DNA of 10,611 nucleotides from a bacterium (GTDB taxonomy: Bacteria > Arandabacterota > Arandabacteria > Arandabacterales > Arandabacteraceae): contig DATKKY010000095.1 of NCBI GenBank assembly GCA_035542695.1, positions 1 through 10,611 of the forward strand, given 5' to 3'. Below are positions 45 through 10,611 of the stretch, in pieces; within the stretch, counting starts at the first letter, position 1; the number at the start of each line of letters is the position of its first letter. The position numbers and the translations under genes were made by a program. The notes below the pieces were generated by a model. That model worked only from the letters and a program-made list of their open reading frames with translations, did not search any database and had not been told where the DNA came from.

Positions 45-3000
45 ATGATCGGTAAGACAATTTCCCACTACAAGATTCTCGAGAAGCTGGGCGAGGGTGG
101 GATGGGTGTGGTCTACAAGGCCGAGGATATCCATCTGGAGCGGCTGGCGGCCTTGAAGTTCCTGCCTCCACACGTTTCCGAGGACTCCGAGGAGAAGGCT
201 CGCTTCATTCATGAAGCCAAGTCTGCCTCGGCCTTGAACCACCCCAATGTCACGACAATCTACGGGATAGAGGACAGCCCCGAAGGGCTTTTCATCGCCA
301 TGGAGTATGTCGATGGCAAGACCCTGAGACAGGTAATCAAGGACGGCCCGCTCCCGCTCAAGAAGGTCTTGGACATCGCGACTCAGATCTGCGAAGGCAT
401 GGCTGCGGCCCACGAGAAGGGCGTCGTTCACCGGGACATCAAGTCCGAGAACATCATGGTCACGGCCCGCGGCCAAGTCAAGATCATGGACTTCGGGCTG
501 GCCAAACTCAAAGGCGCGAGCCGGCTCACTCAGACGGGCACGACTCTGGGCACCATCGGCTACATGTCGCCCGAGCAAGCCTCCGGGGAAGATGTGGACC
601 AGCGGAGCGACATCTTCTCCTTCGGCGTTGTGCTCTACGAGCTCTTGACCGGGCGGCAGCCTTTTCAGGGCGAGAATCAAGCGGCCATCATCAATGCCAT
701 CATCAACGAAGAACCGCAGCCGGTGGCGCGCTTCAACTCCCAGGCCTCGGCCAAGCTTGAGGACATGGTGGCAAAGGCGCTGGCCAAGGACCGAGACGAA
801 CGGTACCAGCACATTGATGATCTGCTTGCCGATCTCCGGCGCGAGCGGAAATCTCTGGAGTACGCGCGGACTGCGAAGTACGCCGAGGCCGCTCGTGCCG
901 CTGAAGGGGCGAAGGCGGCGAGCGGTGTCGGAGCAGGAACCAGCCCACCTTCCGGTTACGAATCTGCGGTGGGAGCGCGGCGGGGGCTTGCCGCCCGGCT
1001 GCCCCTTAAGAAGCTTCTCGGCATTGGTGTTCCTGTAGCGGTGGCGCTTGCGGTCGTTCTGATCCTCTTTGTTCTCGAACCCTTCCGGGTGGAGATGGGG
1101 CCCAAGAAGGAAGCGGTGGCCAGGGAAAACTCTATCGCCATCATGTATTTCGACAACCTCACGGACCGCGCTGACACGGAGCGACTCGGCGAAATCGTCA
1201 CCAATCTGCTCATAACATCGCTATCGGAGTCCAAGTACATCAATGTCGTCTCAAGTCAGCGGCTCTATGACATCCTGAAACTCCTGGGCAAGGAAGGCGC
1301 GAAGTCGATCGACCGGGATGTAGCGACGCAGGTTGCGACCCGGGCCGGTGCCAGGTGGATGCTCCTGGGCAGCATCATCCAGATTGAACCGCAGGCGATC
1401 CTGACATCTCAGCTCGTGGACGTGGAGAGCGGTCAGGTTACGGCATCCCAGCAGATCACCGGCGAGCCGGGGGAGAAGATATTCCCGATCATCGACCGGC
1501 TGGCGGCGGGTCTCAAGCGAGACCTCTCGCTTCCGGCGGAGGCCCAGAAGGAACCCGAGCCCAAGGTTGCCGACTTGACGACCAGTTCGCAGGAAGCCTA
1601 TCGCTATTACCTTGAAGGCAGAGACCTGGCCTACAAGTACTACAACACCGAGGCCAAGGCCAGCCTTAGAAAGGCTTTCGAGCTGGATTCAACCTTCGCC
1701 ATGGCCTACCTGGGCCTGGCTCTGGTGGAGAGCGGCCAAGAGCGGCGGAACCTGGCTGCAAAGGCCCTGAAGTACTCCGACCGAGCCACTGAAGCGGAGC
1801 GCCTATACATAAAGGCTATGGGGGCCTACATCTCAGGCGACTATCCCGAGGCCGTCAAGGGACTCGAGAGGGTGGTGGCCGTCGAGCCTGACAACAAGTA
1901 CGCATTCTTCTGGCTGGGGATGATCCTTTTCGATAATCTCCAGCGGCCGGAGGAGGGGATTCGTAACCTTACGCGTGCGATCGAGATCGACCCCCTTTTC
2001 AAACCCGCCTATAATGCGCTCGCTTATAACTACGACGGGATCGGTGATTTCGAGAAGTCCATCTGGGCCATAGATAAGTACATCTCCTTAGCACCTGAGG
2101 AAGCCAACCCCTACGATTCTCGCGGAGACCTCTACGCCTGGAACGGCAAGCTGGACCAGGCGCTTGAGTCCTACCGCAAAGCAATCGAGATCAAGCCGGA
2201 CTTCTATATGTCTTTGTTCAAGCTTGGAGACATGTACTTGTTCAAGCGCGAGTATGCCAGGGCCGAGAGCTGCTACAAGGAGCTTTCGTCTTGTCCCGAC
2301 AAGTCGACCCGGTCGGGGGGTCGAGAATGCCTGGGCATTATCCCCGCATACCAAGGCAAATTCGATGAAGCCTTCCGAGTTCTGGACGATGGGCTGGCCG
2401 CTGACCGCATGGAGGGGGCCGAGGGCAGCTATCATATGGGCAAGTATCTTGTGAAGGCCGAAATCTATCTCATTAAGAAGGAGTTCGATCTGGCGTTGAA
2501 GGAAGGCGGCGCCGGGGTGGAGGCCTCCAGGAAGATTGAATCGCTCCAACCTGTCTGCAACCGGGACTTTTACTGCTGCCTTCTCGCACGTGCCGGCAGA
2601 ATCGCGGAGGCCCAAGATCTTGCCGAGGCCATAAGGCGGGCCATAAGCGGGAAGAACGAGAACTACATGTCGAGCTATTGGATTCCGCTAGCCGTGATCG
2701 AGATGAGCAAGAAGAACCCGGGCGCCGCTCTTGCGTATCTCGAGAAGGCGGCTGCCGCAGATAAGAGTGTCCTATCGTCCTATTGGTATCGTTGCTTCTG
2801 TGCCCGGGCGTACCTCGAGGCGGGCAAGCTCGGGGAGGCGGTGGCGATGCTCGAGAAGATGGTTTCCAGTTACAGTGAGGATAGGTTCTTCTTCGCTCCG
2901 ATGTGTGTAGAGGACCATTACCTGCTCGGGACCGCGTACGAGAAGTCGGGCTGGACCAGCAAGGCTATAGAGCAGTACCAGGAGTTCCTTGAAATCTGGA

Positions 3001-3074
3001 AGGACGCCGACCCGGGTATCCCCAGCGTCGAGGACGCCCGCCAGCGCCTCGCCGCCCTGACCGGCAAGACATAA
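45..3074 (+). CDS. Receptor-type Hanks Ser/Thr protein kinase, 1009 aa: kinase domain, single TM helix, conserved juxtamembrane module, TPR array (paralog A)
   Basis: Long uninterrupted ORF with an ATG start preceded by AGGA. Kinase motifs are intact: Gly-loop LGEGGMGVV, catalytic Lys in AALKFL (K38), catalytic loop HRDIKSEN (aa 129-136), DFG (aa 149-151) and GYMSPE. One hydrophobic helix LLGIGVPVAVALAVVLILFVL lies at about aa 324-345, with positive residues (RR..KK) on its N-terminal side. Multiple TPR-like 34-aa repeats run from about aa 515 to the end. Confidence 0.92.
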   Translation: MIGKTISHYKILEKLGEGGMGVVYKAEDIHLERLAALKFLPPHVSEDSEEKARFIHEAKSASALNHPNVTTIYGIEDSPEGLFIAMEYVDGKTLRQVIKDGPLPLKKVLDIATQICEGMAAAHEKGVVHRDIKSENIMVTARGQVKIMDFGLAKLKGASRLTQTGTTLGTIGYMSPEQASGEDVDQRSDIFSFGVVLYELLTGRQPFQGENQAAIINAIINEEPQPVARFNSQASAKLEDMVAKALAKDRDERYQHIDDLLADLRRERKSLEYARTAKYAEAARAAEGAKAASGVGAGTSPPSGYESAVGARRGLAARLPLKKLLGIGVPVAVALAVVLILFVLEPFRVEMGPKKEAVARENSIAIMYFDNLTDRADTERLGEIVTNLLITSLSESKYINVVSSQRLYDILKLLGKEGAKSIDRDVATQVATRAGARWMLLGSIIQIEPQAILTSQLVDVESGQVTASQQITGEPGEKIFPIIDRLAAGLKRDLSLPAEAQKEPEPKVADLTTSSQEAYRYYLEGRDLAYKYYNTEAKASLRKAFELDSTFAMAYLGLALVESGQERRNLAAKALKYSDRATEAERLYIKAMGAYISGDYPEAVKGLERVVAVEPDNKYAFFWLGMILFDNLQRPEEGIRNLTRAIEIDPLFKPAYNALAYNYDGIGDFEKSIWAIDKYISLAPEEANPYDSRGDLYAWNGKLDQALESYRKAIEIKPDFYMSLFKLGDMYLFKREYARAESCYKELSSCPDKSTRSGGRECLGIIPAYQGKFDEAFRVLDDGLAADRMEGAEGSYHMGKYLVKAEIYLIKKEFDLALKEGGAGVEASRKIESLQPVCNRDFYCCLLARAGRIAEAQDLAEAIRRAISGKNENYMSSYWIPLAVIEMSKKNPGAALAYLEKAAAADKSVLSSYWYRCFCARAYLEAGKLGEAVAMLEKMVSSYSEDRFFFAPMCVEDHYLLGTAYEKSGWTSKAIEQYQEFLEIWKDADPGIPSVEDARQRLAALTGKT
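66..830 (+). other. Protein kinase catalytic domain of paralog A (about aa 8-262)
   Basis: All Hanks subdomain motifs fall in this span. The matching span in paralog B is 3193..3957. Confidence 0.85.
1014..1079 (+). other. Predicted transmembrane helix of paralog A (the paralog B equivalent is about 4153..4218)
   Basis: A hydrophobic stretch of 22 residues flanked by R/K on the N-terminal side. This predicts the kinase domain is cytoplasmic and the C-terminal two thirds extracytoplasmic. Confidence 0.7.
1080..1529 (+). other. Conserved juxtamembrane extracytoplasmic module of paralog A (about aa 346-495), an alpha/beta-type domain resembling the IAVLPFxNxS...YFxDGxTEELI module found between TM and TPR in many bacterial signalling proteins
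   Basis: The motif ENSIAIMYFDNLTDRADTERLGEIVTNLLITSLSESKYINVVSSQRLYDIL is followed by ARWMLLGSIIQ..LTSQLVDVESGQV. It is almost identical in paralog B (4219..4668). The family assignment is an inference from memory of this motif pattern, not a search result. Confidence 0.5.
1588..3071 (+). other. TPR repeat array of paralog A (about aa 515-1009); the paralog B equivalent is about 4720..6204
   Basis: Recurring TPR signature positions (W/L-G-Y, A..A, P) appear in units such as AYNALAYNYDGIGDFEKSIWAIDKYISLAPEEANPY and DSRGDLYAWNGKLDQALESYRKAIEIKPDFY. Confidence 0.75.
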
Positions 3075-3080
3075 GTAACG

Positions 3081-3092
3081 TGGTATGATAAT
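3081..3092 (+). promoter_or_regulatory. Candidate extended -10 promoter element (TGgTATGATaat) in the 97-nt spacer between the two kinase genes
   Basis: The sequence tggtatgataat reads as TGn plus TATGAT, a 5/6 match to TATAAT. No convincing -35 is present and none is needed for an extended -10. Only weak 4-bp hairpins and no intrinsic terminator follow paralog A. Confidence 0.3.
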
Positions 3093-3171
3093 CTGGTGAC
3101 ACGAAGCTGATTTCTCCCGTTCGTATGCGAATGAAAGGTGGATACGAGAAAGGCTGGATGCAGGCAACGCG

Positions 3172-6100
3172 ATGATCGGCAAGACGATATCTCACTACAA
3201 GATCCTGGAGAAACTCGGCGAGGGCGGCATGGGCGTAGTGTACAAGGCGGAGGACACCCGCCTCGAGCGCCTGGTGGCCCTGAAATTCCTGCCGCCTCAC
3301 ATATCCGAGAACTCCGATGAGAAGGCTCGTTTCATCCACGAGGCAAGATCGGCATCGGCGATCAACCACCCCAATGTGACCACGATTCACGGCATCGAGG
3401 AGAGTCCCGATGGCGTGTTCATAGTCATGGAGTACGTCGAAGGGAAGACGCTGAAGGCCCTGGCCAGCGAAGAGCCCCTCACGCTGAAGCGGATCCTCGA
3501 CATCGGAGTCCAAATCTGTGAAGGTCTGGCCCTCGCGCACGAGAAAGGCGTGGTCCATCGGGATATCAAGTCCGAGAACATCATGGTTACCGCGCGCGGC
3601 CAGGTGAAGATCATGGACTTCGGCCTGGCCAAACTCAAAGGTGCAAGCAAGCTGACCCAGACGGGCACGACCCTGGGGACCATAGGCTACATGTCACCCG
3701 AGCAGGCCTCCGGTGAAGAGGTGGACCAGCGCAGCGACATCTTCTCCGCCGGGGTAGTCCTTTATGAGCTCTTGACGGGGCGGATGCCTTTCTGGGGAGA
3801 GAATCAAGCGGCGATCATCAATGCGATACTTAACTTGGAGCCGTTGCCTATAGCCCGCTACAACAACCAGGTGTCAACGACACTTGAGTACGCCATATCC
3901 AAGGCCTTGGCGAAGGAAAGGGATGAACGGTACCAGCACATAGACGAGCTGCTTGCAGACTTGAGGCGAGAGCGGAAGGCCCTTGAGTATGCACGCACCA
4001 CGAAGCTGGCCGAGGCCGCGAGAGCCGCGCAGGCGACCGCTTATCGGGAGCCGGTGGCCCAGGGCGAGGTTGCCGAGCCTGTGCCGGCTGGCCAGCGCCC
4101 AGCAGGTGCTGGGCGCGGTGGCCTGCGGGGCTGGCTAGGTTCGCGGAAGAGAGTCCTTGGTGTCGCGATTCCCGCCGTGATCGCGCTTGCCGTCGTTCTC
4201 ATCCTCTTCGTACTTGAGCCCTTCCGGGTGGAGATGGGACCCAAGAAGGAAGCCGTGGCCAAGGAGAACTCGCTCGCCATCATGTACTTCGACAACCTCG
4301 TGGACCGCGCGGACACGGAGCGCCTCGGGGAGATCGTCACCAACTTGCTGATAACGTCGCTGTCCGAATCTAAGTACATCAATGTGGTCTCGAGCCAGCG
4401 GCTCTATGACATCTTGAAGCTCCTGGGGAAGGAAGGGGCGAAGTCGATCGACCGGGACGTTGCCACGCAGGTTGCGACCCGGGCCGGCGCCAGGTGGATG
4501 CTTCTGGGCAGCATCTTGCAGACCCAGCCGCAGGTGATCCTGACGTCGCAGCTAGTGGACGTGGAGAGCGGCAAGGTGGGGGCGTCCCAGCGGATCACGG
4601 GGGAGGTTGGGGAGAAGATCTTCCCAATAGTTGACCGGCTGGCGACGGGCCTCAAACAGGACCTTGCCCTGCCGGCGGAGGCCCAAAAGGAACCCGAGCG
4701 CAAGGTTTCCGACCTCACCACGGACTCACCCGAGGCCTATAGATATCTCCTCGAGGGAAACGATCTCCAGATGAAGATGTACGCGGCCGACGCTCAGGCC
4801 AGCTATAGAAAGTCCATCGAGTTCGATTCTACGTTCGCGATGCCCTACATATTCCTGGCCATGCTCGCGACCGGCGCGGAGCAAAAGGACTTGGTCGGCA
4901 AAGCGGTTAAGTACTCCAATCGAGCCAGTGAGAGGGAGAAGATCTTCATTGGCGGTGTAGCCGCCTTTGTCTCAGGTGACTATCCCAAAGCGATCAAGAC
5001 GTTCGAGAGGCTGTCGGCGGCCTATCCCGATGACAAGAACTGGCCCTGGTGGTTAGGAGCTACTTATTATAAGGGCCTGAACCAGATGGAACCGGCGATT
5101 CGGGAACTCACCCGGGCAATCGAAATCGATCCCCTCTTCAAGCCGCCCTACAACATGCTGGCCTATGCCTACGATGCTATCGGCGATTTCGATAAATCCA
5201 TCTGGGCGATTGATAAGTACATCTCCATGCCGCCCGAGGAGGCCAACCCTTACGATACCCGCGGAGACCTCTACGCCTGGAACGGCAAGCTGGACCAGGC
5301 GATCGAATCTTACCGCAAGGCGGTCGAGGTGAAGCCGGATTTCTATGTTTCCTGGCTGAAGCTCGGAGCCATGCACCTTTTTAAGCACGAGTATGCCCAG
5401 GCGGAGAGCTGCTGTAAGGTGGTGGCGTCCTGTCCCGACAAGGAGACCCGCTCCCAAGGGCGGGGTGCGCTGGGTATCATCCTGGCGTATCAGGGCAAGC
5501 TCAGGGAGGCCCTGAGAGCTTTGGATGACGGCCTGGCCGCGGACCGGATGGAGGGCGCGGCGGGTGAGGGAGTTTGCGTGAAGCACTCGCTTAAGGCCGC
5601 TATCTATCTCATGGAGAAAAACTTCGACTCAGCACTAGGGGAAATACAAGCCTATGTGGAAGCTGAGAAGGCCTTGCACCCAAGCGATCCCGTCTATGGT
5701 CGGGACTTCTACGTGTATGCTCTCGTCAAGGCTGGCAAGCTTGGCGAAGCCGAGCAAGTCCTCAAGGACTTGAAGCGCGATATCGGGGACAAGCATCCGA
5801 CTTACATGTACCTGTACTGGGGGGCGCTGGGCCAAGTCGAGGAAGCCCGCGGAAATCTCGCTGCCGCAATCGCCGACTACGAGAAGGCTGACCAACAATC
5901 TCCAGGACCAATCTATCCGTGTCGGGCGGTGCTGGCCCTGGCGTACCTCAAAGCGGGCAAGCTAGGCGAGGCCGTGGCGATGTTCGAGAAGGTGCTCTCG
6001 CGTTACGATGACTACCGGCTCTACGAAGCTCCCGGATGCGTCAAGGACCATTACGACTTGGGCAGGGCCTACGACAAATCCGGCTGGACGGCGAAGGCCA

Positions 6101-6207
6101 TCGAGCAGTACCAGGAATTCCTGGAAACTTGGAAGGATGCTGACCCCGGTATTCCCGAGGTTGAGGATGCCCGTGCGCGCCTAGCGAAATTGAAAGCCGG
6201 CGCCTGA
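3172..6207 (+). CDS. Receptor-type Hanks Ser/Thr protein kinase, 1011 aa: kinase domain, single TM helix, conserved juxtamembrane module, TPR array (paralog B)
   Basis: The domain order and all catalytic motifs are the same as in paralog A (LGEGGMGVV, VALKFL, HRDIKSEN, DFG, GYMSPE). The TM helix VLGVAIPAVIALAVVLILFVL lies at about aa 328-349. The ATG at 3172 sits 97 nt after the stop of paralog A. Confidence 0.92.
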   Translation: MIGKTISHYKILEKLGEGGMGVVYKAEDTRLERLVALKFLPPHISENSDEKARFIHEARSASAINHPNVTTIHGIEESPDGVFIVMEYVEGKTLKALASEEPLTLKRILDIGVQICEGLALAHEKGVVHRDIKSENIMVTARGQVKIMDFGLAKLKGASKLTQTGTTLGTIGYMSPEQASGEEVDQRSDIFSAGVVLYELLTGRMPFWGENQAAIINAILNLEPLPIARYNNQVSTTLEYAISKALAKERDERYQHIDELLADLRRERKALEYARTTKLAEAARAAQATAYREPVAQGEVAEPVPAGQRPAGAGRGGLRGWLGSRKRVLGVAIPAVIALAVVLILFVLEPFRVEMGPKKEAVAKENSLAIMYFDNLVDRADTERLGEIVTNLLITSLSESKYINVVSSQRLYDILKLLGKEGAKSIDRDVATQVATRAGARWMLLGSILQTQPQVILTSQLVDVESGKVGASQRITGEVGEKIFPIVDRLATGLKQDLALPAEAQKEPERKVSDLTTDSPEAYRYLLEGNDLQMKMYAADAQASYRKSIEFDSTFAMPYIFLAMLATGAEQKDLVGKAVKYSNRASEREKIFIGGVAAFVSGDYPKAIKTFERLSAAYPDDKNWPWWLGATYYKGLNQMEPAIRELTRAIEIDPLFKPPYNMLAYAYDAIGDFDKSIWAIDKYISMPPEEANPYDTRGDLYAWNGKLDQAIESYRKAVEVKPDFYVSWLKLGAMHLFKHEYAQAESCCKVVASCPDKETRSQGRGALGIILAYQGKLREALRALDDGLAADRMEGAAGEGVCVKHSLKAAIYLMEKNFDSALGEIQAYVEAEKALHPSDPVYGRDFYVYALVKAGKLGEAEQVLKDLKRDIGDKHPTYMYLYWGALGQVEEARGNLAAAIADYEKADQQSPGPIYPCRAVLALAYLKAGKLGEAVAMFEKVLSRYDDYRLYEAPGCVKDHYDLGRAYDKSGWTAKAIEQYQEFLETWKDADPGIPEVEDARARLAKLKAGA

Positions 6208-6231
6208 GGATCGGAGATTCGGAGCCCCGCG

Positions 6232-6594
6232 ATGTTTGAACACAAGCACGATCCAATGCTCACTCGCGCCGCCTTCATCAGGCGCATGCTGCTACATGGA
6301 TTGATCGCGTGTGTGATCGTCGCGGTGGCACTCACGATCGGAGTACTCGGCTACCGCGGGCTGGGCGGCCTTGCTTGGGTGGACGCCATTCTCGACGCGT
6401 CGATGATCTTGGGCGGTATGGGCCCGGTGTCGACGCTGCACACCGCCGGAGCCAAGCTGTTTGCGTCTGGCTATGCTTTATTCTCCGGGCTCATCTTCAT
6501 CGCGGTCGCTGGGCTCCTCTTCGCCCCGATCTTCCACAGGGTGATACATCACTTCCATATGGATGAAGGTGGCGAGGGCGATAGGGAGTCGTGA
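6232..6594 (+). CDS. Small integral membrane protein, 120 aa, about three predicted TM helices and a His-rich acidic C-terminus (HRVIHHFHMDEGGEGDRES)
   Basis: The ATG at 6232 has a GGAG 7 nt upstream and sits 24 nt after the kinase B stop. Hydrophobic segments are LLHGLIACVIVAVALTIGVLGY, AILDASMILGGMGPV and YALFSGLIFIAVAGLLFAPIF. I do not recognise the family. Confidence 0.55.
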   Translation: MFEHKHDPMLTRAAFIRRMLLHGLIACVIVAVALTIGVLGYRGLGGLAWVDAILDASMILGGMGPVSTLHTAGAKLFASGYALFSGLIFIAVAGLLFAPIFHRVIHHFHMDEGGEGDRES

Positions 6595-6657
6595 GCGGGA
6601 CCATGCCCCGCTTAGGCTTCCGGCGAGGTCACGGTGCGGGCGGCCGGCCGCGAGCAA

Positions 6658-6861
6658 TCAGTAAGGTGTCGGTCGGTTTCCGCGGTCCTCTAAGTTTGGT
6701 TCCTTCTTCTTCAAGCCTAGCCGTCCTGCGCGTCGCGCGCTATCGGCGAGCAGAAACTCGATCTGGGCATTGATGCTTCTCAAGTCGTCTGCCGCCCACT
6801 TCTCGAGCACTGCGAACAGCCGGTCATCCAGCCGGAGTAGGAATTTCTTCTTCTCGCTCAT
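6658..6861 (-). CDS. Arc-like ribbon-helix-helix (RHH) DNA-binding protein, 67 aa
   Basis: The N-terminal core KFLLRLDDRLFAVLEKWAADDLRSINAQIEFLLADS fits the RHH beta-strand/helix A/helix B pattern of Arc/MetJ/CopG-type repressors (compare the Arc-family motif ..FNLRLP..L...A....RS.N.EI...L). The RBS is weak (GGGG). The C-terminal tail is low-complexity. Confidence 0.55.
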   Translation of the reverse strand: MSEKKKFLLRLDDRLFAVLEKWAADDLRSINAQIEFLLADSARRAGRLGLKKKEPNLEDRGNRPTPY

Positions 6862-6910
6862 CGCCCCACACGCTGCCTAAGTTCGGCTGAATCAGCCCGC
6901 GTCTACCTGC

Positions 6911-6966
6911 CCCTGGGACAGGGTGCCGGTCAAGGGGACCCGGCACCCATTCGCCCTGTCCCATGG
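6911..6966. repeat. GC-rich imperfect inverted repeat (stem-loop) in the 108-nt spacer between the SPFH and Arc-like genes
   Basis: tgggacagggtgccgg (6914-6929) pairs with ccggcaccc (6940-6948) and ccctgtccca (6954-6963), with a 5-nt bulge (attcg). Neither strand has a U-tract after the stem. Confidence 0.6.
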
Positions 6967-6969
6967 TTT

Positions 6970-7881
6970 CTATTGATAGAGGGTTCCCGTGTTTATGATC
7001 GGCTGCACTTCGGTCTCAGACACCAATGCCACCAAGAGATTGTTGACCATCGTGGCCCGCTTCTCCTGGTCCAGCTCGAGGATCTTCTGTTCAGTCAGCG
7101 CGTTGAGCGCCATCTGGACCATGCCGACCGCGCCCTCGACAATCTTCTGCCGTGCGGCGATGATCGCCTGGGCTTGCTGACGCCGGAGCATCAGCTGGGC
7201 AATCTCCGGTGCATAAGCCAGGTGGCTAATGCGGGACTCGATTATCTCCAGGCCTGCGACCTGGAGTCTTGCCTCGAGTTGGCTCTTGAGGTTCTCCGCA
7301 ATCTCCTGAGGACTGCCTCGGAGCGAGGTCCGTTGCTCGTCCTGGGCGTCGTAGGGATACTCGGAGGCCAGGGCGCGGATCGCGGTTTCGCTCTGAATCG
7401 ACACGAACTGCTCGTAGTTCTCGACGTCGAATAGGGCGCGGGCCGAGTCCACCACCCGCCAGACTACCACGGCGGCTATCTCGATGGGATTGCCGTGAGA
7501 GTCGTTGACCTTGATCTTCTCGCTCGCGAAGTTGTGGATCCTCAAGGACACGTGTTTCTTCACCGCGAAGGGCTGAGCCCACCAGAACCCGGAATCGCGG
7601 ATCGAGCCAACGTACTTCCCGAACAGGACGAGCACGCGGGCCTCGTTGGGCTGAACCACCATGAGCCCCTTGGCCCAGATGAGGGTCACGAACAGCATCG
7701 GGAGCAGTACCCAGAACAAGGTCGGGGGGCCGGCCTCCCGGCCATAGCGCATGGCGTCACTGTGAGTCTGCGAGGCCATCGCAAATATGGTGTAGATGTC
7801 CAGCGCGATCAGGGCTACCAGGATCACAAGGGCGACGAACCCATTGATCCGCGTTGCGTTTCTTTCTGATACCTGCTGCAT
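6970..7881 (-). CDS. SPFH / band-7 (stomatin-prohibitin-flotillin-HflK/C) domain membrane protein
   Basis: Two N-terminal hydrophobic helices ([22 protein letters not shown] and [16 protein letters not shown]) are followed by a typical SPFH core ([31 protein letters not shown]...[23 protein letters not shown]) and a coiled-coil-like C-terminus. I chose the start at 7881 (MQQVSE..) because GGAGG lies 7 nt upstream. The upstream ATG at 7941 would place the start upstream of the -10 and TSS of the predicted promoter, inside the spacer. Confidence 0.8.
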
Positions 7882-7908
7882 GACGGCACCTCCTTCACCT
7901 TGGTTATC

Positions 7909-7941
7909 GGTGATATTGTTATGATATCTTACTGATATCAT
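7909..7941. promoter_or_regulatory. Candidate operator: perfect inverted repeat ATGATATC-ttact-GATATCAT (7921-7941) plus three TGATAT direct repeats at 11-bp phasing (7911, 7922, 7933), covering the spacer, the -10 and the start-site region of the SPFH promoter
   Basis: The 8-bp arms are exact reverse complements with a 5-bp spacer. The TGATAT copies at 7911-7916, 7922-7927 and 7933-7938 are exactly one helical turn apart. Both the inverted repeat and the phased repeats overlap the promoter spacer and -10, and the first repeat copy lies at the predicted TSS. Confidence 0.5.
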
Positions 7942-7949
7942 AATGTCAA
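7921..7949 (-). promoter_or_regulatory. Sigma70-like promoter of the SPFH gene: -35 TTGACA (complement of 7944-7949), 17-nt spacer, -10 TATCAT (complement of 7921-7926)
   Basis: The hexamers and spacing can be read directly on the minus strand: cgcTTGACAttatgatatcagtaagaTATCATaacaat. The predicted transcription start is about 30 nt upstream of the ATG at 7881. Confidence 0.55.
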
Positions 7950-7996
7950 GCGAAAAATGAAGGTCGGGGGAGGCTCTGGGGCAGCGGTGCCGATTC

Positions 7997-8758
7997 CTAG
8001 CTGATTAGCCCCTTGATATACTCCCGGGTCAGTTCCTGTTTGGGGTTTTCGAAGAATGCGTCGGCGGGACCGTATTCGATGAGATCGCCTAGATAAAGGA
8101 AGACTATGTAATCCGCGAGGCGCCGAGCCTGGCGGAGGATGTGCGTCACCATTACGATCGTGTATTCCTGCTTTATCTCCTGGAACTTCTCTTCGATCCG
8201 CTGGCTGGACTTGGGGTCGAGCGCCGATGTGGGCTCGTCGGCCAGGATGATCTCGGGTTCAACGGCGAGACCGCGCGCCAGGCACAGCCGCTGCTGCTGG
8301 CCGATCGAGAGCCGGGAGGCTGGGGCGTGAAGCCGGTCTTTCACCTCATCCCACAGCGTGGCTTCCTTGAGATAGTGTTCGACAATCCTGTCCAGTTCCT
8401 TCTTGGCCCGCACCCCGTGAATCTTGAGGCCATAAGCAACGTTGTCATAGATGGACATCGGAAGCGGGCAGGGCCGCTGGGAAAGCAGCCCCATCTTCTT
8501 GCGGATGTGCGTTATCTCTGCCTTCGGATCATAGACGTTCTCGCCGTCCACCAGGACTTCGCCGGTGATCTTGATGCCCTCCATCGATTCAATAAGGCGG
8601 TTAAAGGAGCGCAGGAGAGTTGTCTTGCCGCAGCCCGAAGGCCCGATGATCGCCGTTATCATCTTGTCGGGAATGTCCACGGTTATGCCCTTGAGGGCCC
8701 GCTCACCGGCGTAGGAAACCGTGAGGTTCTTAACGCTTATGTGCGGTCTCAGCTCCAT
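7997..8758 (-). CDS. pstB: Phosphate ABC transporter ATP-binding protein PstB
   Basis: 253 aa with Walker [13 protein letters not shown] signature LSIGQQQR, Walker [12 protein letters not shown], and a PstB-typical N-terminus (..[24 protein letters not shown]). GGAGG lies 4 nt upstream of the ATG and overlaps the pstA stop codon. Confidence 0.93.
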
Positions 8759-8766
8759 CTTGCCTC

Positions 8767-9768
8767 CTACTTCACGATGTACTTGGTGTACTTGCGACTT
8801 AGCATTCTCGACCCGATGCTGATTACGAGGATGATGATCGTGAGAATCAGCGCAGAAGCATAGGCACGCTGCTGAACCTCGGGGAAGGGCGTGCCCAGCT
8901 GGAAAAAGATCGCCAACGGCAAAGTCGCTGCCGGACGGAGTAGCGAGTGAGGTATCGCGTCGCTGTAGCCGGCCGTGAATATCACCGAGGCCGCGTCGCC
9001 CACGCCGCGGCCAAAGGCAATCAGGATGGCCGTGAGGATCCCCGGGAAGGCCTGGCGCGCCACGACCCTGATTGCGGTCTCCCAGCGGGTAGTGCCAAGT
9101 GCGTACGACGCGTCAGAGAGCTCCTCGGGCACCATGCGAATCACTTCGTCCATCGCGCGGCACATTATTGGCAGGACCAGCAGAGAGACAGCGATGATGC
9201 CTCCCAAGAGCGATGCGCCGACGTGGAAGAAGAGCATCAGCGAGAATCCAAAGGCACCGTACACTATCGAAGGAATTCCCCACAGCACGTCCAACGAGAA
9301 CCTGACCAGGCCGGCCAGGCGCGAGCCCCGCTTGGTGTTGACGTTGAGATAGAGGACCACCGGAAGGCTTATGACGATCGCAACCAGCGTTGCCCCTCCC
9401 GCCACAAAGAGCGATCCCACAATCGCATTGAGAATGCCGCCTTCCTTGCCGAGGTAGTAGCCGCCCTTGGGAGCTTGCGTGATCATCGACAGCTTCATCG
9501 CCGGAAGACCCTTGACCGTGATGGTCGCAAGTATCAGAACCAGGCTCAAGAGCACCAGGGCGGTCGAGGCAATCATCAAAACCCTAAAGAAGCCCTCCTC
9601 GAGCCTCCTGGGCTCGAAGCGGCGCCGCTTGGTGAGGATGCTCAGCGCTTTGCGGCCGAAGGGGTCTGTGGACAGGCCCACCGGGATGTCCCGCATACCA
9701 CGGGGTTGCCACGACGGCGTACTGGACCGCTTGCGGGTTCGCCCATCTTCCCATCTTTCTGCCGACAC
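8767..9768 (-). CDS. pstA: Phosphate ABC transporter permease PstA
   Basis: A multi-TM permease with an ABC-permease EAA-type loop (ASYALGTTRWETAIRVVARQAFPGI), lying between pstC and pstB. The start shown is a GTG with GGAGG 10 nt upstream. The first in-frame ATG is at 9696, so the true start is uncertain. Confidence 0.85.
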   Translation of the reverse strand: MSAERWEDGRTRKRSSTPSWQPRGMRDIPVGLSTDPFGRKALSILTKRRRFEPRRLEEGFFRVLMIASTALVLLSLVLILATITVKGLPAMKLSMITQAPKGGYYLGKEGGILNAIVGSLFVAGGATLVAIVISLPVVLYLNVNTKRGSRLAGLVRFSLDVLWGIPSIVYGAFGFSLMLFFHVGASLLGGIIAVSLLVLPIMCRAMDEVIRMVPEELSDASYALGTTRWETAIRVVARQAFPGILTAILIAFGRGVGDAASVIFTAGYSDAIPHSLLRPAATLPLAIFFQLGTPFPEVQQRAYASALILTIIILVISIGSRMLSRKYTKYIVK

Positions 9769-9796: not shown

Positions 9797-10611
9797 TCAC
9801 TTGATGCTGCGGGTCACTCGGACAAGCACCAGCCGCGCGCCCACGTTGAAGAGCACCACTACCACCAGCAGGATCAGGGACGCAAAGAGCAAGGCCGAAT
9901 CGTACATCGGGACCGAGAGCATTTCGCCGTAGTTGTTGGCAATTAGGGCCGCCAGCGGGTATGAGGGATCGAGCACCGAGTGAGGCACCTGCGGCACGTT
10001 GCCGGCGACCATCAGCACCGCCATCGTCTCTCCGAAAGCCCGTGACAGGCCGAGCAGGACTGCCGCCACTATTCCGGGGAAGGCCTTGCGGACGACTGCA
10101 TACTTGACTGTCTGCCATCGGGTCGCGCCCAAGGCAAGCGAAGCTTCCCGCATCTCGCGGGGCACTGACGCGAAGACCTCGAGTGAGACGTTGATTATCA
10201 GCGGGAAGATCATGATCGCCAGCACTATGCCAGCTGCCAGGACACAGTAACCGGAGGAGAAACTCCCCGTGAGCGGCGCAATGTGGTCCTTGATGAACGG
10301 CACGATGATTAGCACGCCCCACACACCGAAGACCACCGACGGAATGCCTGCGAGCAAATCGACAAATGGCCGGGCAAACTCGCGCATCCGCCGCGGCGCG
10401 TATTCCGAAAGGTAGATCGCAGTCAAGAGGCAGAGCGGCACGGCGATCACCACTGCTGCCAGCGTGACCCAGAGGCTACCGACTATGAACGGCAGGAATC
10501 CGAATTCACCCCGCGAGGGGTGCCACGATGACGAAAAAAGCAGGTGGCCCAGCGACTTGACGGCCAGGATCGGCCGCGACCGCTGATAGAGGCCAAGGGT
10601 CATGAAGACCA
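9797..10611 (-). CDS. pstC: Phosphate ABC transporter permease PstC, N-terminus truncated by the window edge
   Basis: A multi-TM permease with an EAA-type loop (EASLALGATRWQTVKYAVVRKAFPGI). The reading frame is still open at position 10611. Gene order is pstC, pstA, pstB. Confidence 0.85.
   Translation of the reverse strand, partial: VFMTLGLYQRSRPILAVKSLGHLLFSSSWHPSRGEFGFLPFIVGSLWVTLAAVVIAVPLCLLTAIYLSEYAPRRMREFARPFVDLLAGIPSVVFGVWGVLIIVPFIKDHIAPLTGSFSSGYCVLAAGIVLAIMIFPLIINVSLEVFASVPREMREASLALGATRWQTVKYAVVRKAFPGIVAAVLLGLSRAFGETMAVLMVAGNVPQVPHSVLDPSYPLAALIANNYGEMLSVPMYDSALLFASLILLVVVVLFNVGARLVLVRVTRSIK

Follow-up and report, generated by a model that had tools for sequence, protein, structure and literature searches.

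A putative three-unit operator conserved across phyla at the promoter of an SPFH gene, and its probable autorepression by an Arc-type ribbon-helix-helix protein encoded downstream

Dimers of ribbon-helix-helix (RHH) proteins assemble cooperatively on regularly spaced adjacent DNA sites, with the ribbon in the major groove, and repress transcription (PMC3413123). Here we describe a candidate operator of this kind in a 10,611-nt stretch of DNA from a bacterium of the Arandabacteraceae (metagenome contig DATKKY010000095.1; hereafter the window, to whose whole length all position numbers refer), in which three short palindromic units are built into the promoter of a gene for an SPFH (Band 7) membrane protein and a gene for a 67-aa RHH protein follows on the same strand. 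Comparison with related loci makes it probable that the 67-aa protein binds this operator and thereby autorepresses the SPFH-RHH operon. SPFH proteins (stomatin, prohibitin, flotillin and HflKC) are nearly ubiquitous, and for most of their bacterial subfamilies neither the function nor the regulation is known.

Among proteins of solved structure, the homologue nearest to the 67-aa protein is Arc of phage P22 (operator in the immI region, Pant), with about 30% identity over 50 of the 53 Arc residues. The two proteins share an F-x-L-R beta-strand, an RSVN..I start of helix B and a C-terminal K-x-GR; both are small and without a ligand domain, and both operators lie inside a sigma70 promoter. In work by Raumann and colleagues that appeared in Nature in 1994 (367:754), Arc dimers reportedly cooperate on subsites centred 11 bp apart, the spacing that we see here. 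Arc occupies two subsites as a tetramer, in a 21-bp operator with non-palindromic half-sites, whereas the array described here has three palindromic 8-bp units; Arc is encoded by a phage gene and controls an antirepressor, whereas the 67-aa protein belongs to a chromosomal cassette with an SPFH membrane protein; and the family of the 67-aa protein carries a variable, disordered C-terminal tail that is absent from Arc, together with K/L/R in place of Arc Q/N/R as the DNA-facing residues.

MetJ resembles the present case in its 8-bp palindromic unit (AGACGTCT), which takes one RHH dimer and is repeated two to five times for cooperative repression (PMC3413123). The met-boxes abut, with an 8-bp period, in contrast to the 11-bp period here; MetJ works with S-adenosylmethionine as co-repressor, from an unlinked gene and on a regulon, whereas in the 67-aa protein no ligand domain can be detected, and its gene lies in the operon that it appears to control. 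CopG (pMV158 copG-repB), omega of pSM19035, ParG and RelB share with the arrangement proposed here an RHH protein that is co-transcribed with its target and places several cooperative dimers over the promoter (PMC3413123). CopG shares a transcript with its target and keeps RNA polymerase off the promoter (PMC2724298), and ParG accepts direct or inverted units (PMC3413123), as the SPFH-linked RHH family would. CopG-type systems are plasmid copy-number, partition or toxin-antitoxin modules in which the regulator usually comes first, and their operators are specific to one plasmid; here, in contrast, the regulator comes last, the cargo is an SPFH protein and the operator is conserved across phyla. 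HrcA with CIRCE and NrdR with the NrdR boxes are, as here, cases of one operator that stands beside the same kind of gene and is recognisable by sequence across many phyla. They differ in fold and regulon and have long been established experimentally, whereas the SPFH-RHH pair is known from sequence.

The operator, the promoter and the SPFH gene are read on the minus strand. The start codon of the SPFH gene is the ATG at 7881..7879, at whose Met the tblastn alignments of SPFH homologues begin, and not the ATG at 7941 of the longest open reading frame (ORF); because of this start the repeats are intergenic, between the SPFH start codon and the stop codon of pstB, which lies 47 bp upstream of the -35 hexamer. 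The features of the promoter region and the two genes of the proposed operon are:

7944..7949, minus strand: -35 hexamer TTGACA of the SPFH promoter (promoter score 11/12), with T1, T2, G3 and A4 near-invariant in 60 distinct homologous upstream regions
7933..7940, minus strand: operator unit 1, TGATATCA, a perfect 8-bp palindrome in the promoter spacer, at about -26 to -19 of the predicted start
7922..7929, minus strand: operator unit 2, AGATATCA, overlapping the -10; family consensus TGATATCA, logo columns 21-28, 1.5-2.0 bits
7921..7926, minus strand: -10 hexamer TATCAT; nearly all 60 distinct relatives have the same 17-nt spacing
7919..7943: perfect inverted repeat TTATGATATC-N5-GATATCATAA with 10-nt arms, made up of units 1 and 2 plus symmetric flanks; lineage-specific
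7914, minus strand: predicted transcription start, an A 7 nt 3' of the -10, placed by promoter geometry and giving a 33-nt leader
7911..7918, minus strand: operator unit 3, CAATATCA, at about -4 to +4 around the predicted start
7887..7893, minus strand: ribosome-binding site GGAGGTG, 5 nt before the ATG at 7881; a GGAG motif is conserved there in relatives
6970..7881, minus strand: SPFH / Band 7 membrane protein gene, 303 aa (Pfam PF01145, E 4e-24)
6658..6861, minus strand: Arc-type RHH gene, 67 aa, the proposed repressor, found 3' of SPFH in nearly all related loci

Around 7880-7950 the plus strand reads:

...cat gacggcacctcc ttcaccttggttatcgg TGATAT tgtta TGATAT cttac TGATAT cataatgtcaa gcg...

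The earlier note on this DNA, made from its letters alone, had recognised a sigma70 promoter toward the SPFH gene and three phased copies of TGATAT, and both observations stand. TTGACA (7949..7944), 17 nt and TATCAT (7926..7921) agree with the consensus at 11 of 12 positions and form the top-scoring promoter-like site within 6000-8800, and the three plus-strand hexamers start at 7911, 7922 and 7933, exactly 11 bp apart. These hexamers coincide with operator units 1-3 (7911-7940), whose centres are likewise 11 bp apart; three 8-bp units at this regular spacing have the arrayed form of RHH operators, and they overlap the core promoter, covering the spacer, the -10 and the predicted +1. A plus-strand promoter-like site at 7916-7944 (TTGTTA-17-CATAAT, 9/12) was rejected as a mirror image that arises from the symmetry of the operator, with no plus-strand gene after it. 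Just 3' of unit 3, at 7902-7909, lies a possible weaker fourth unit, confined to the GC-rich clade (CGATAACC in the window, CGATAGAC in loci L004 and L005), with its centre about 9 bp, not 11, from unit 3.

The note had also reported a perfect inverted repeat, and ATGATATC-N5-GATATCAT is indeed present on the plus strand at 7921-7941, with a length that had been put too short. The reading of this palindrome as the functional unit of the operator was rejected: loci L004-L006, whose SPFH proteins are 80-90% identical to that of the window, lose the palindrome and keep the three units, and a perfect 10-nt inverted repeat is by itself unexceptional, with two more in the window (4095-4116 and 9617-9630). 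The site looks like a direct and an inverted repeat at once because the tandem units are themselves palindromic. In the aligned upstream regions the family-wide architecture is one of three individually palindromic 8-bp units 11 bp apart, usually with the symmetry axis on the middle unit. Against chance expectation in the window, TGATAT-N5-TGATAT-N5-TGATAT was matched in none of 200 dinucleotide-preserving shuffles, even at 2 mismatches; the palindrome pattern at up to 3 mismatches was matched twice, with 0.04 matches expected and both overlapping matches at the operator site; and TGATAT occurs 7 times versus 2.5 expected, with 4 of the 7 inside 30 bp at the operator. The non-random feature is the phased triple repeat within the promoter, not the inverted repeat alone.

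A pronounced conservation of the whole block is evident among relatives of the SPFH protein. A metagenome scan with this protein returned 80 loci at 60-90% identity, from genomes that range from GC-rich to very AT-rich, and the comparison set comprised 83 loci with SPFH homologues at 60-100% identity; the operator block is present in 76 of the 76 loci where the alignment begins at residue 1 and 60 nt or more of upstream DNA are available. A logo of 60 distinct upstream sequences, anchored on the -35, gave the consensus cTTGACttt-tTG[A/C]TAT[C/T]A-ata-TGATATCA-Ttac-[G/A]ATA[G/T]CA, in which columns 10-39 are conserved about as strongly as the -35 and the -10, many of them at 1.9-2.0 bits, and the flanks, before the -35 and past column 39 up to the ribosome-binding site, have 0.1-0.9 bits. 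The unit centres fall at columns 13.5, 24.5 and 35.5. Unit 1 occupies columns 10-17, at 1.0-2.0 bits each, and the core of unit 3, ATA[G/T]CA, occupies columns 34-39 at 1.6-1.9 bits, with the exception of the variable column 37 (0.8 bits); this core is conserved although it lies outside the core promoter elements. The outer units are inverted copies of one another, and columns 12 and 37 covary as mirror images (A-T in 21 sequences, C-G in 24, mixed in 13; Fisher p = 1.3e-5, uncorrected for phylogeny).

Such conservation might reflect promoter function, or the structure of an AT-rich phased repeat, with no repressor involved: the block is wholly inside the promoter, and the middle unit, in the family a perfect palindrome TGATATCA, doubles in most relatives as an extended -10, TGnTATCAT. 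Sigma70, however, does not constrain spacer and start-site positions, and columns 13-15 in the spacer and 35, 36, 38 and 39 at the start site reach 1.9-2.0 bits; because these positions are near-invariant though free of sigma70 constraint, a two-fold symmetric DNA-binding factor is called for. Promoter function alone also leaves aside the mirror-image, covarying outer units, the window's own middle unit, which lacks the TG of an extended -10, and the presence of the same array ahead of RHH genes in unrelated contexts. Bacteroidota loci keep the three units and have no TTGACA -35, as expected from the different promoter type of that phylum, so the units are conserved independently of promoter type. 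We regard an explanation without a repressor as extremely improbable.

The earlier note had named a widespread genomic repeat as an outcome that would undo its proposal; a weight matrix run over 471 kb of the relatives' loci exceeded 15 bits at the SPFH promoter and nowhere else, indicating that the site is not a dispersed repeat. In the window the 30-bp matrix gave no positive score outside 7900-7951. The DNA pattern TGMTATYNNNNNGATATCATNNNNATAKCA (18 fixed and 3 two-fold positions), scanned in 185,579 species genomes (596 Gb), matched at least 120 stretches, compared with about 2-20 expected by chance on our estimate. An SPFH homologue stands beside 89 of the 120 matches listed, at 34-73% identity to the window protein, and in 88 of these 89 the match is upstream of SPFH; the matches listed upstream of SPFH span at least 8 phyla. 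Their hosts include Lachnospiraceae, Oscillospiraceae, Erysipelotrichaceae, Treponema, Flavobacteriaceae, Sphingobacterium and Saprospiraceae, and further Aminicenantes, Acidobacteria, Planctomycetota, Armatimonadetes, Latescibacterota and Ignavibacteria. Of the 89 listed SPFH loci, 30 have TTGAC as the -35, with the 9-nt offset unchanged, and 7 more have TTGAT or TTGCT, Lachnospiraceae included. Three complete chromosomes are among the matches, each with one exact-pattern match, two of them beside SPFH (L158 and L160).

Recognisable variants of the operator extend to at least 3 phyla beyond the at least 8 of the pattern scan, including the Bacillus cereus group and gut Bacteroidales. The operator can be recognised in Bacillota, Bacteroidota, Spirochaetota, Acidobacteriota, Planctomycetota, Alphaproteobacteria and others, with degenerate variants in Actinomycetota and Deinococcota. 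This conservation at the same promoter position across phyla supports the proposal, first made from the window's letters, of a repressor operator over the SPFH promoter.

An equally close association links the site with the RHH gene. That this gene lies 3' of SPFH in the same orientation had been seen in the window, and the gene pair proves to be conserved in relatives: of the 65 listed loci whose downstream DNA extends for 1 kb or more, 64 have an RHH homologue 3' of SPFH in the same orientation (57 counted by script, and 7 in which the RHH ORF overlaps the SPFH end), as do nearly all of loci L004-L083. The SPFH stop codon and the RHH start codon overlap in many loci (-4 or -1 nt), which implies one transcript. 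Seven pattern matches without SPFH (L092, L102, L110, L128, L173, L177 and L194) stand about 20-60 nt upstream of an RHH homologue. In annotated genomes, the site, full or degenerate but still in 11-bp phase, is present at seven control loci that have the RHH gene (Bacillus thuringiensis, Bacillus sp., Qipengyuania of the Alphaproteobacteria, Bosea, Deinococcus, Nonomuraea of the Actinomycetota, and Parabacteroides distasonis), and two SPFH loci without the RHH gene (Listeria-type and Enterococcus-type records) have no site. Judged by these gene neighbourhoods, the site tracks the RHH gene, not SPFH or any other neighbour, and repressor and operator together look like a portable module. The gene pair being conserved and the site following the RHH gene, the idea of an autoregulated SPFH-RHH operon is supported in silico.

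At the loci without SPFH the arrays have three or four units, and the stretches concerned are 2881-3116 (L110), 4557-4781 (L128), 7569-7837 (L092), 3540-3758 (L173) and 6971-7194 (L177). A divergent ORF of about 377 aa is nearby in Planctomycetota, and a conserved ORF of about 200-255 aa accompanies the arrays in Acidobacteria; in L092 it lies on the other strand, and in L102 it follows downstream in the same orientation.

The site could instead be the operator of another, unlinked factor, a global regulator or a response regulator of the OmpR/PhoB type, with the RHH protein acting otherwise. Winged-helix response regulators typically use direct repeats phased by 10-11 bp, the assignment of the site to the RHH protein comes from sequence comparison, and the genes just upstream, with the end of pstB so near the -35, make PhoB a candidate:

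9797-10603, minus strand: pstC
8767-9768, minus strand: pstA
7997-8758, minus strand: pstB (TIGR00972, 343 bits)

A Pho regulon promoter was nevertheless rejected: the Pho box CTGTCATAWAWCTGTCAY has no match in the window at up to 3 mismatches, and pstB stands beside the site only in the window's own organism, in none of about 200 other site-bearing loci examined. Against other factors more generally, across phyla no DNA-binding gene but the RHH gene keeps company with the site, and it does so also at loci that lack SPFH; the two loci that lack the RHH gene lack the site as well; and palindromic units suit a symmetric dimer, not head-to-tail monomers. Control of the site by an unlinked factor is therefore, in our judgement, distinctly unlikely. 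Between pstCAB and the SPFH promoter there is no terminator-like site, and no phoU follows pstB. Because no terminator was found there, read-through from pstCAB is possible, with the bound repressor as a roadblock.

The assignment of the 67-aa protein to the Arc-type RHH proteins, also made in the earlier note, holds up under profile, hhalign and Pfam comparison. Its family has more than 2000 members (the SPFH protein, which is identical on three contigs, has more than 8000 homologues) and the consensus M[SA]EKKKFLLR[LI]D..[LY].ALEKWAADDLRS[IV]NAQIEFLL..A.[RK]KAGR, followed by a variable low-complexity tail. The family profile matches P22 Arc in the PDB over its full length (1u9p, E 6e-5; 1nla, 4e-3; 1arq, 0.12), the hhalign alignment to P22 Arc, with the 30% identity over 50 of 53 residues given above, has 88% probability and E 3e-6, and PF03869 (Arc) matches 35 of 37 family members, with a best E of 6e-6. 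By alignment to Arc the predicted DNA-facing residues are K6, L8 and R10, versus Q9, N11 and R13 of Arc. In the Arc/MetJ superfamily the first turn of helix B, with its R-S-x-N motif, contacts phosphate. Across phyla, neither the arginine equivalent to R10 nor the RS[VI]N that opens helix B varies, and the beta-strand and the RS[VI]N[AG]QIE start of helix B as a whole are nearly invariant, which parallels the invariance of the DNA units. We also noticed that Ile or Leu at RHH residue 11 goes with outer units of the C-G or A-T type (Fisher p = 1.5e-6, uncorrected for phylogeny); the association is not relied on, because phylogeny is uncorrected and residue 11 probably faces the protein core.

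RefSeq names the small protein 'toxin-antitoxin system HicB family antitoxin' in Bacillus thuringiensis and Qipengyuania, 'PTS ascorbate transporter subunit IIC' in Deinococcus and 'Arc family DNA-binding protein' in Parabacteroides; in Bosea it is unannotated. ORFs of the small protein lie at 2728-2892 in L204, 2261-2452 in L207, 2876-3073 in L205, 2342-2542 in L209 and 2280-2477 in L208.

These relationships raise the question of whether the gene pair is akin to toxin-antitoxin or abortive-infection systems, in which case the RHH protein would bind the SPFH protein, or a further product encoded at some loci (gene X, below), as well as repress, and the partner would modulate DNA binding. Members of the RHH family also match ParD-like, FitA-like and HicB antitoxin models, PGAP labels orthologues as HicB family antitoxins, and the C-terminal tail is variable, disordered and charged, like that of many antitoxins; very similar triple TGATATCA arrays stand ahead of true RHH-PIN pairs (L195 and L138), and a toxin-first order of genes is known from hicAB and higBA. 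SPFH, on the other hand, is not known as a toxin family, and PADLOC has no match for the SPFH, RHH and gene X proteins. A partner of the SPFH/Band 7 type with no PADLOC match does not make a type II toxin-antitoxin pair. The locus in Bacillus thuringiensis has a housekeeping-looking position, flanked by a DUF2892 gene and by purD and with pcrA a little way upstream; there is no sign of multiple copies, given the one exact-pattern match in each of the three complete chromosomes; and SPFH similarity broadly tracks taxonomy. The likeness of the RHH protein to ParD, FitA and HicB antitoxin domains reflects the shared fold, and we think it improbable that the cassette works as such a pair.

Autorepression by the RHH protein, the reading that we favour, would work as follows. 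Positions 7911-7949 would form a strong sigma70 promoter for a two-gene operon, SPFH and then the 67-aa RHH protein, with the three-unit operator built in. Each 8-bp (pseudo)palindrome of the TGATATCA type would take one RHH dimer, with its two-stranded beta-ribbon inserted into the major groove. At a centre-to-centre distance of 11 bp, close to one turn of the helix, the three dimers would lie on one face of the DNA, touching and cooperative, and would cover about -26 to +4, so that RNA polymerase would be excluded or the open complex blocked. Since the proposed repressor is encoded in the transcript that it would control, as its last gene, the outcome would be negative autoregulation, with SPFH and RHH output held at a set level. 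Binding by the RHH protein, the stoichiometry of three dimers and repression as the effect are steps that we infer.

The same protein could bind the same units and activate, or act both ways; AmrZ does so at some promoters, and indirectly so do Arc and Mnt. Some RHH proteins, AmrZ among them, both activate and repress (PMC3325190). Units placed over both the -10 and the predicted +1 are where a repressor classically occludes a promoter, and this promoter is already near consensus, a state in which an activator is superfluous; activation is accordingly a very unlikely role.

Several points weigh against autorepression through this operator. The covariation statistics for columns 12 and 37 ignore shared ancestry, and the weight matrix and the search pattern were both built from SPFH upstream regions, so that matches in close relatives are partly so by construction. 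About 20 of the 120 matches listed have neither SPFH nor an RHH-family match alongside, and a few similar triple arrays adjoin unrelated RHH antitoxins or a ParA gene, so this type of motif is not exclusive to the SPFH-linked RHH family. The window protein alone scores 14 bits for Pfam Arc, below the 20.4-bit cut-off, and 16 bits for ParD-like, also below threshold. An AlphaFold2 model of the monomer, built on a 37-sequence alignment, is one long helix (residues 3-44, pLDDT 77) and not beta-alpha-alpha; we take it as uninformative, because an obligate intertwined dimer is expected. In the window a 108-nt gap with a hairpin separates the SPFH and RHH genes, and their co-transcription there is inferred from relatives. 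Finally, the literature search found no binding, footprint, reporter or transcription-start data for any member.

The hairpin in this gap is GC-rich:

6911..6966, minus strand: hairpin in the SPFH-RHH gap, GGGACAGGG...GGGTGCCGG / CCGGCACCC...CCCTGTCCC, with no T tract after it

The whole 114-nt stretch folds at -48.5 kcal/mol (z = -1.4, not significant versus shuffled sequences). With no T tract and an insignificant folding energy, the hairpin was rejected as a terminator; it may tune RHH expression, by lowering or by stabilising output of the distal gene. No terminator was called in the SPFH-RHH gap of the window, and no second operator was found in it. Rfam covariance models gave no match in 6600-8100 at E up to 1; most of the operator block lies 5' of the predicted start and is thus untranscribed from the SPFH promoter.

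A tentative and rather unlikely extension of autorepression would turn the SPFH-RHH cassette into a feedback sensor, in which the SPFH assembly captures or releases the repressor through its variable, disordered, charged C-terminal tail. On the same doubtful footing, the product of gene X would join the SPFH assembly in Ignavibacteria-type loci, and promoter occupancy would report the state of the SPFH scaffold or its free capacity, somewhat as in the conditional cooperativity of toxin-antitoxin systems or the membrane sequestration of regulators. If true, this would be a widespread, previously unrecognised membrane-to-promoter signalling module. Gene X, of about 170 aa, is found between SPFH and RHH in most Ignavibacteria-type loci (4886-5398 in L033, 2522-3031 in L010, 3717-4232 in L080, and about 40 others) and is absent from the window; its product is membrane-anchored, with a hydrophobic C-terminal segment, and has no Pfam or PADLOC match.

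In a survey of prokaryotic SPFH operons, NfeD-type proteins are the only partners, and the other subgroups have no conserved neighbours (PMC2636767). The full-text literature, outside which most subscription journals lie, yielded no paper in which SPFH, stomatin or Band 7 is connected to RHH, Arc, HicB or CopG, no mention of the Bacillus orthologue accessions and no description of TGATATCA operators for an SPFH-RHH system. The RHH operator and the mechanism of autorepression are of a textbook kind; what appears to be new is the cassette, in which an SPFH subfamily is joined to an Arc-type partner and to a 30-bp operator that crosses phyla. Three linked features would thus define the subfamily, namely a fixed Arc-type partner, the 30-bp operator, and a predicted start with its regulatory logic. 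Its function becomes testable in Bacillus thuringiensis/cereus and Parabacteroides distasonis, where loss of the repressor should overexpress SPFH. The small gene, now variously entered as 'HicB family antitoxin', 'PTS ascorbate transporter subunit IIC' or 'hypothetical', can be given a corrected annotation, and studies of cooperative RHH-DNA assembly gain a compact, apparently portable repressor-operator pair with three-dimer geometry.

The remaining genes of the window lie on its plus strand:

45-3074 and 3172-6207, plus strand: two tandem paralogous Ser/Thr kinase genes of about 1010 aa with TPR repeats
6232-6594, plus strand: 120-aa membrane protein gene, convergent

Each kinase has a FlgO/CsgG-like segment in the middle of the protein and TPR repeats at the C-terminus, and PADLOC gave nothing for the 120-aa protein. 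A half-site-like ATGATAAT had been pointed out at 3085-3092, in the 97-nt spacer between the kinase genes; the letters are there, and we rejected them as a related half-site, as they are isolated, with no phased partner and no positive weight-matrix score. They resemble a -10 element ahead of the second kinase gene.

Among the matches of the pattern scan, triple TGATATCA arrays in 11-bp phase also stand ahead of unrelated RHH genes, at 6870-7607 in L195, 736-990 in L138, 751-1470 in L090 and 6679-7088 in L145; these genes are RHH antitoxin and PIN toxin pairs and, in Liquorilactobacillus sucicola, one for an Arc-like protein of 120 aa. RHH operators may have arrived repeatedly at GATATC-type units spaced by one turn. 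Head-to-tail 11-bp tandem repeats containing GATATCA occur at 7826-7870 in L113 and 7362-7405 in L159, as GATATCATTGA in four copies adjoining a ParA ATPase gene and as CCAATGATATC in four copies; they are probably partition-site or other iterons caught by the pattern and unrelated to SPFH. The 7318-nt Clostridia contig L127 carries an identical site at both ends (136-165 and 7154-7183), with a 1202-aa ORF after one copy; the identical ends point to a circular element or to a terminal repeat from assembly. A metagenome-assembled genome of Planctomycetota, DASXTT01, has at least 3 separate arrays (L110, L132 at 5747-5790 and L149 at 260-300), some with four units; one is ahead of an RHH gene and the others are beside unrelated ORFs, one of them for a secreted protein with an EF-hand-like KFDKNGDGKLD, and these arrays may form a small regulon in that lineage.

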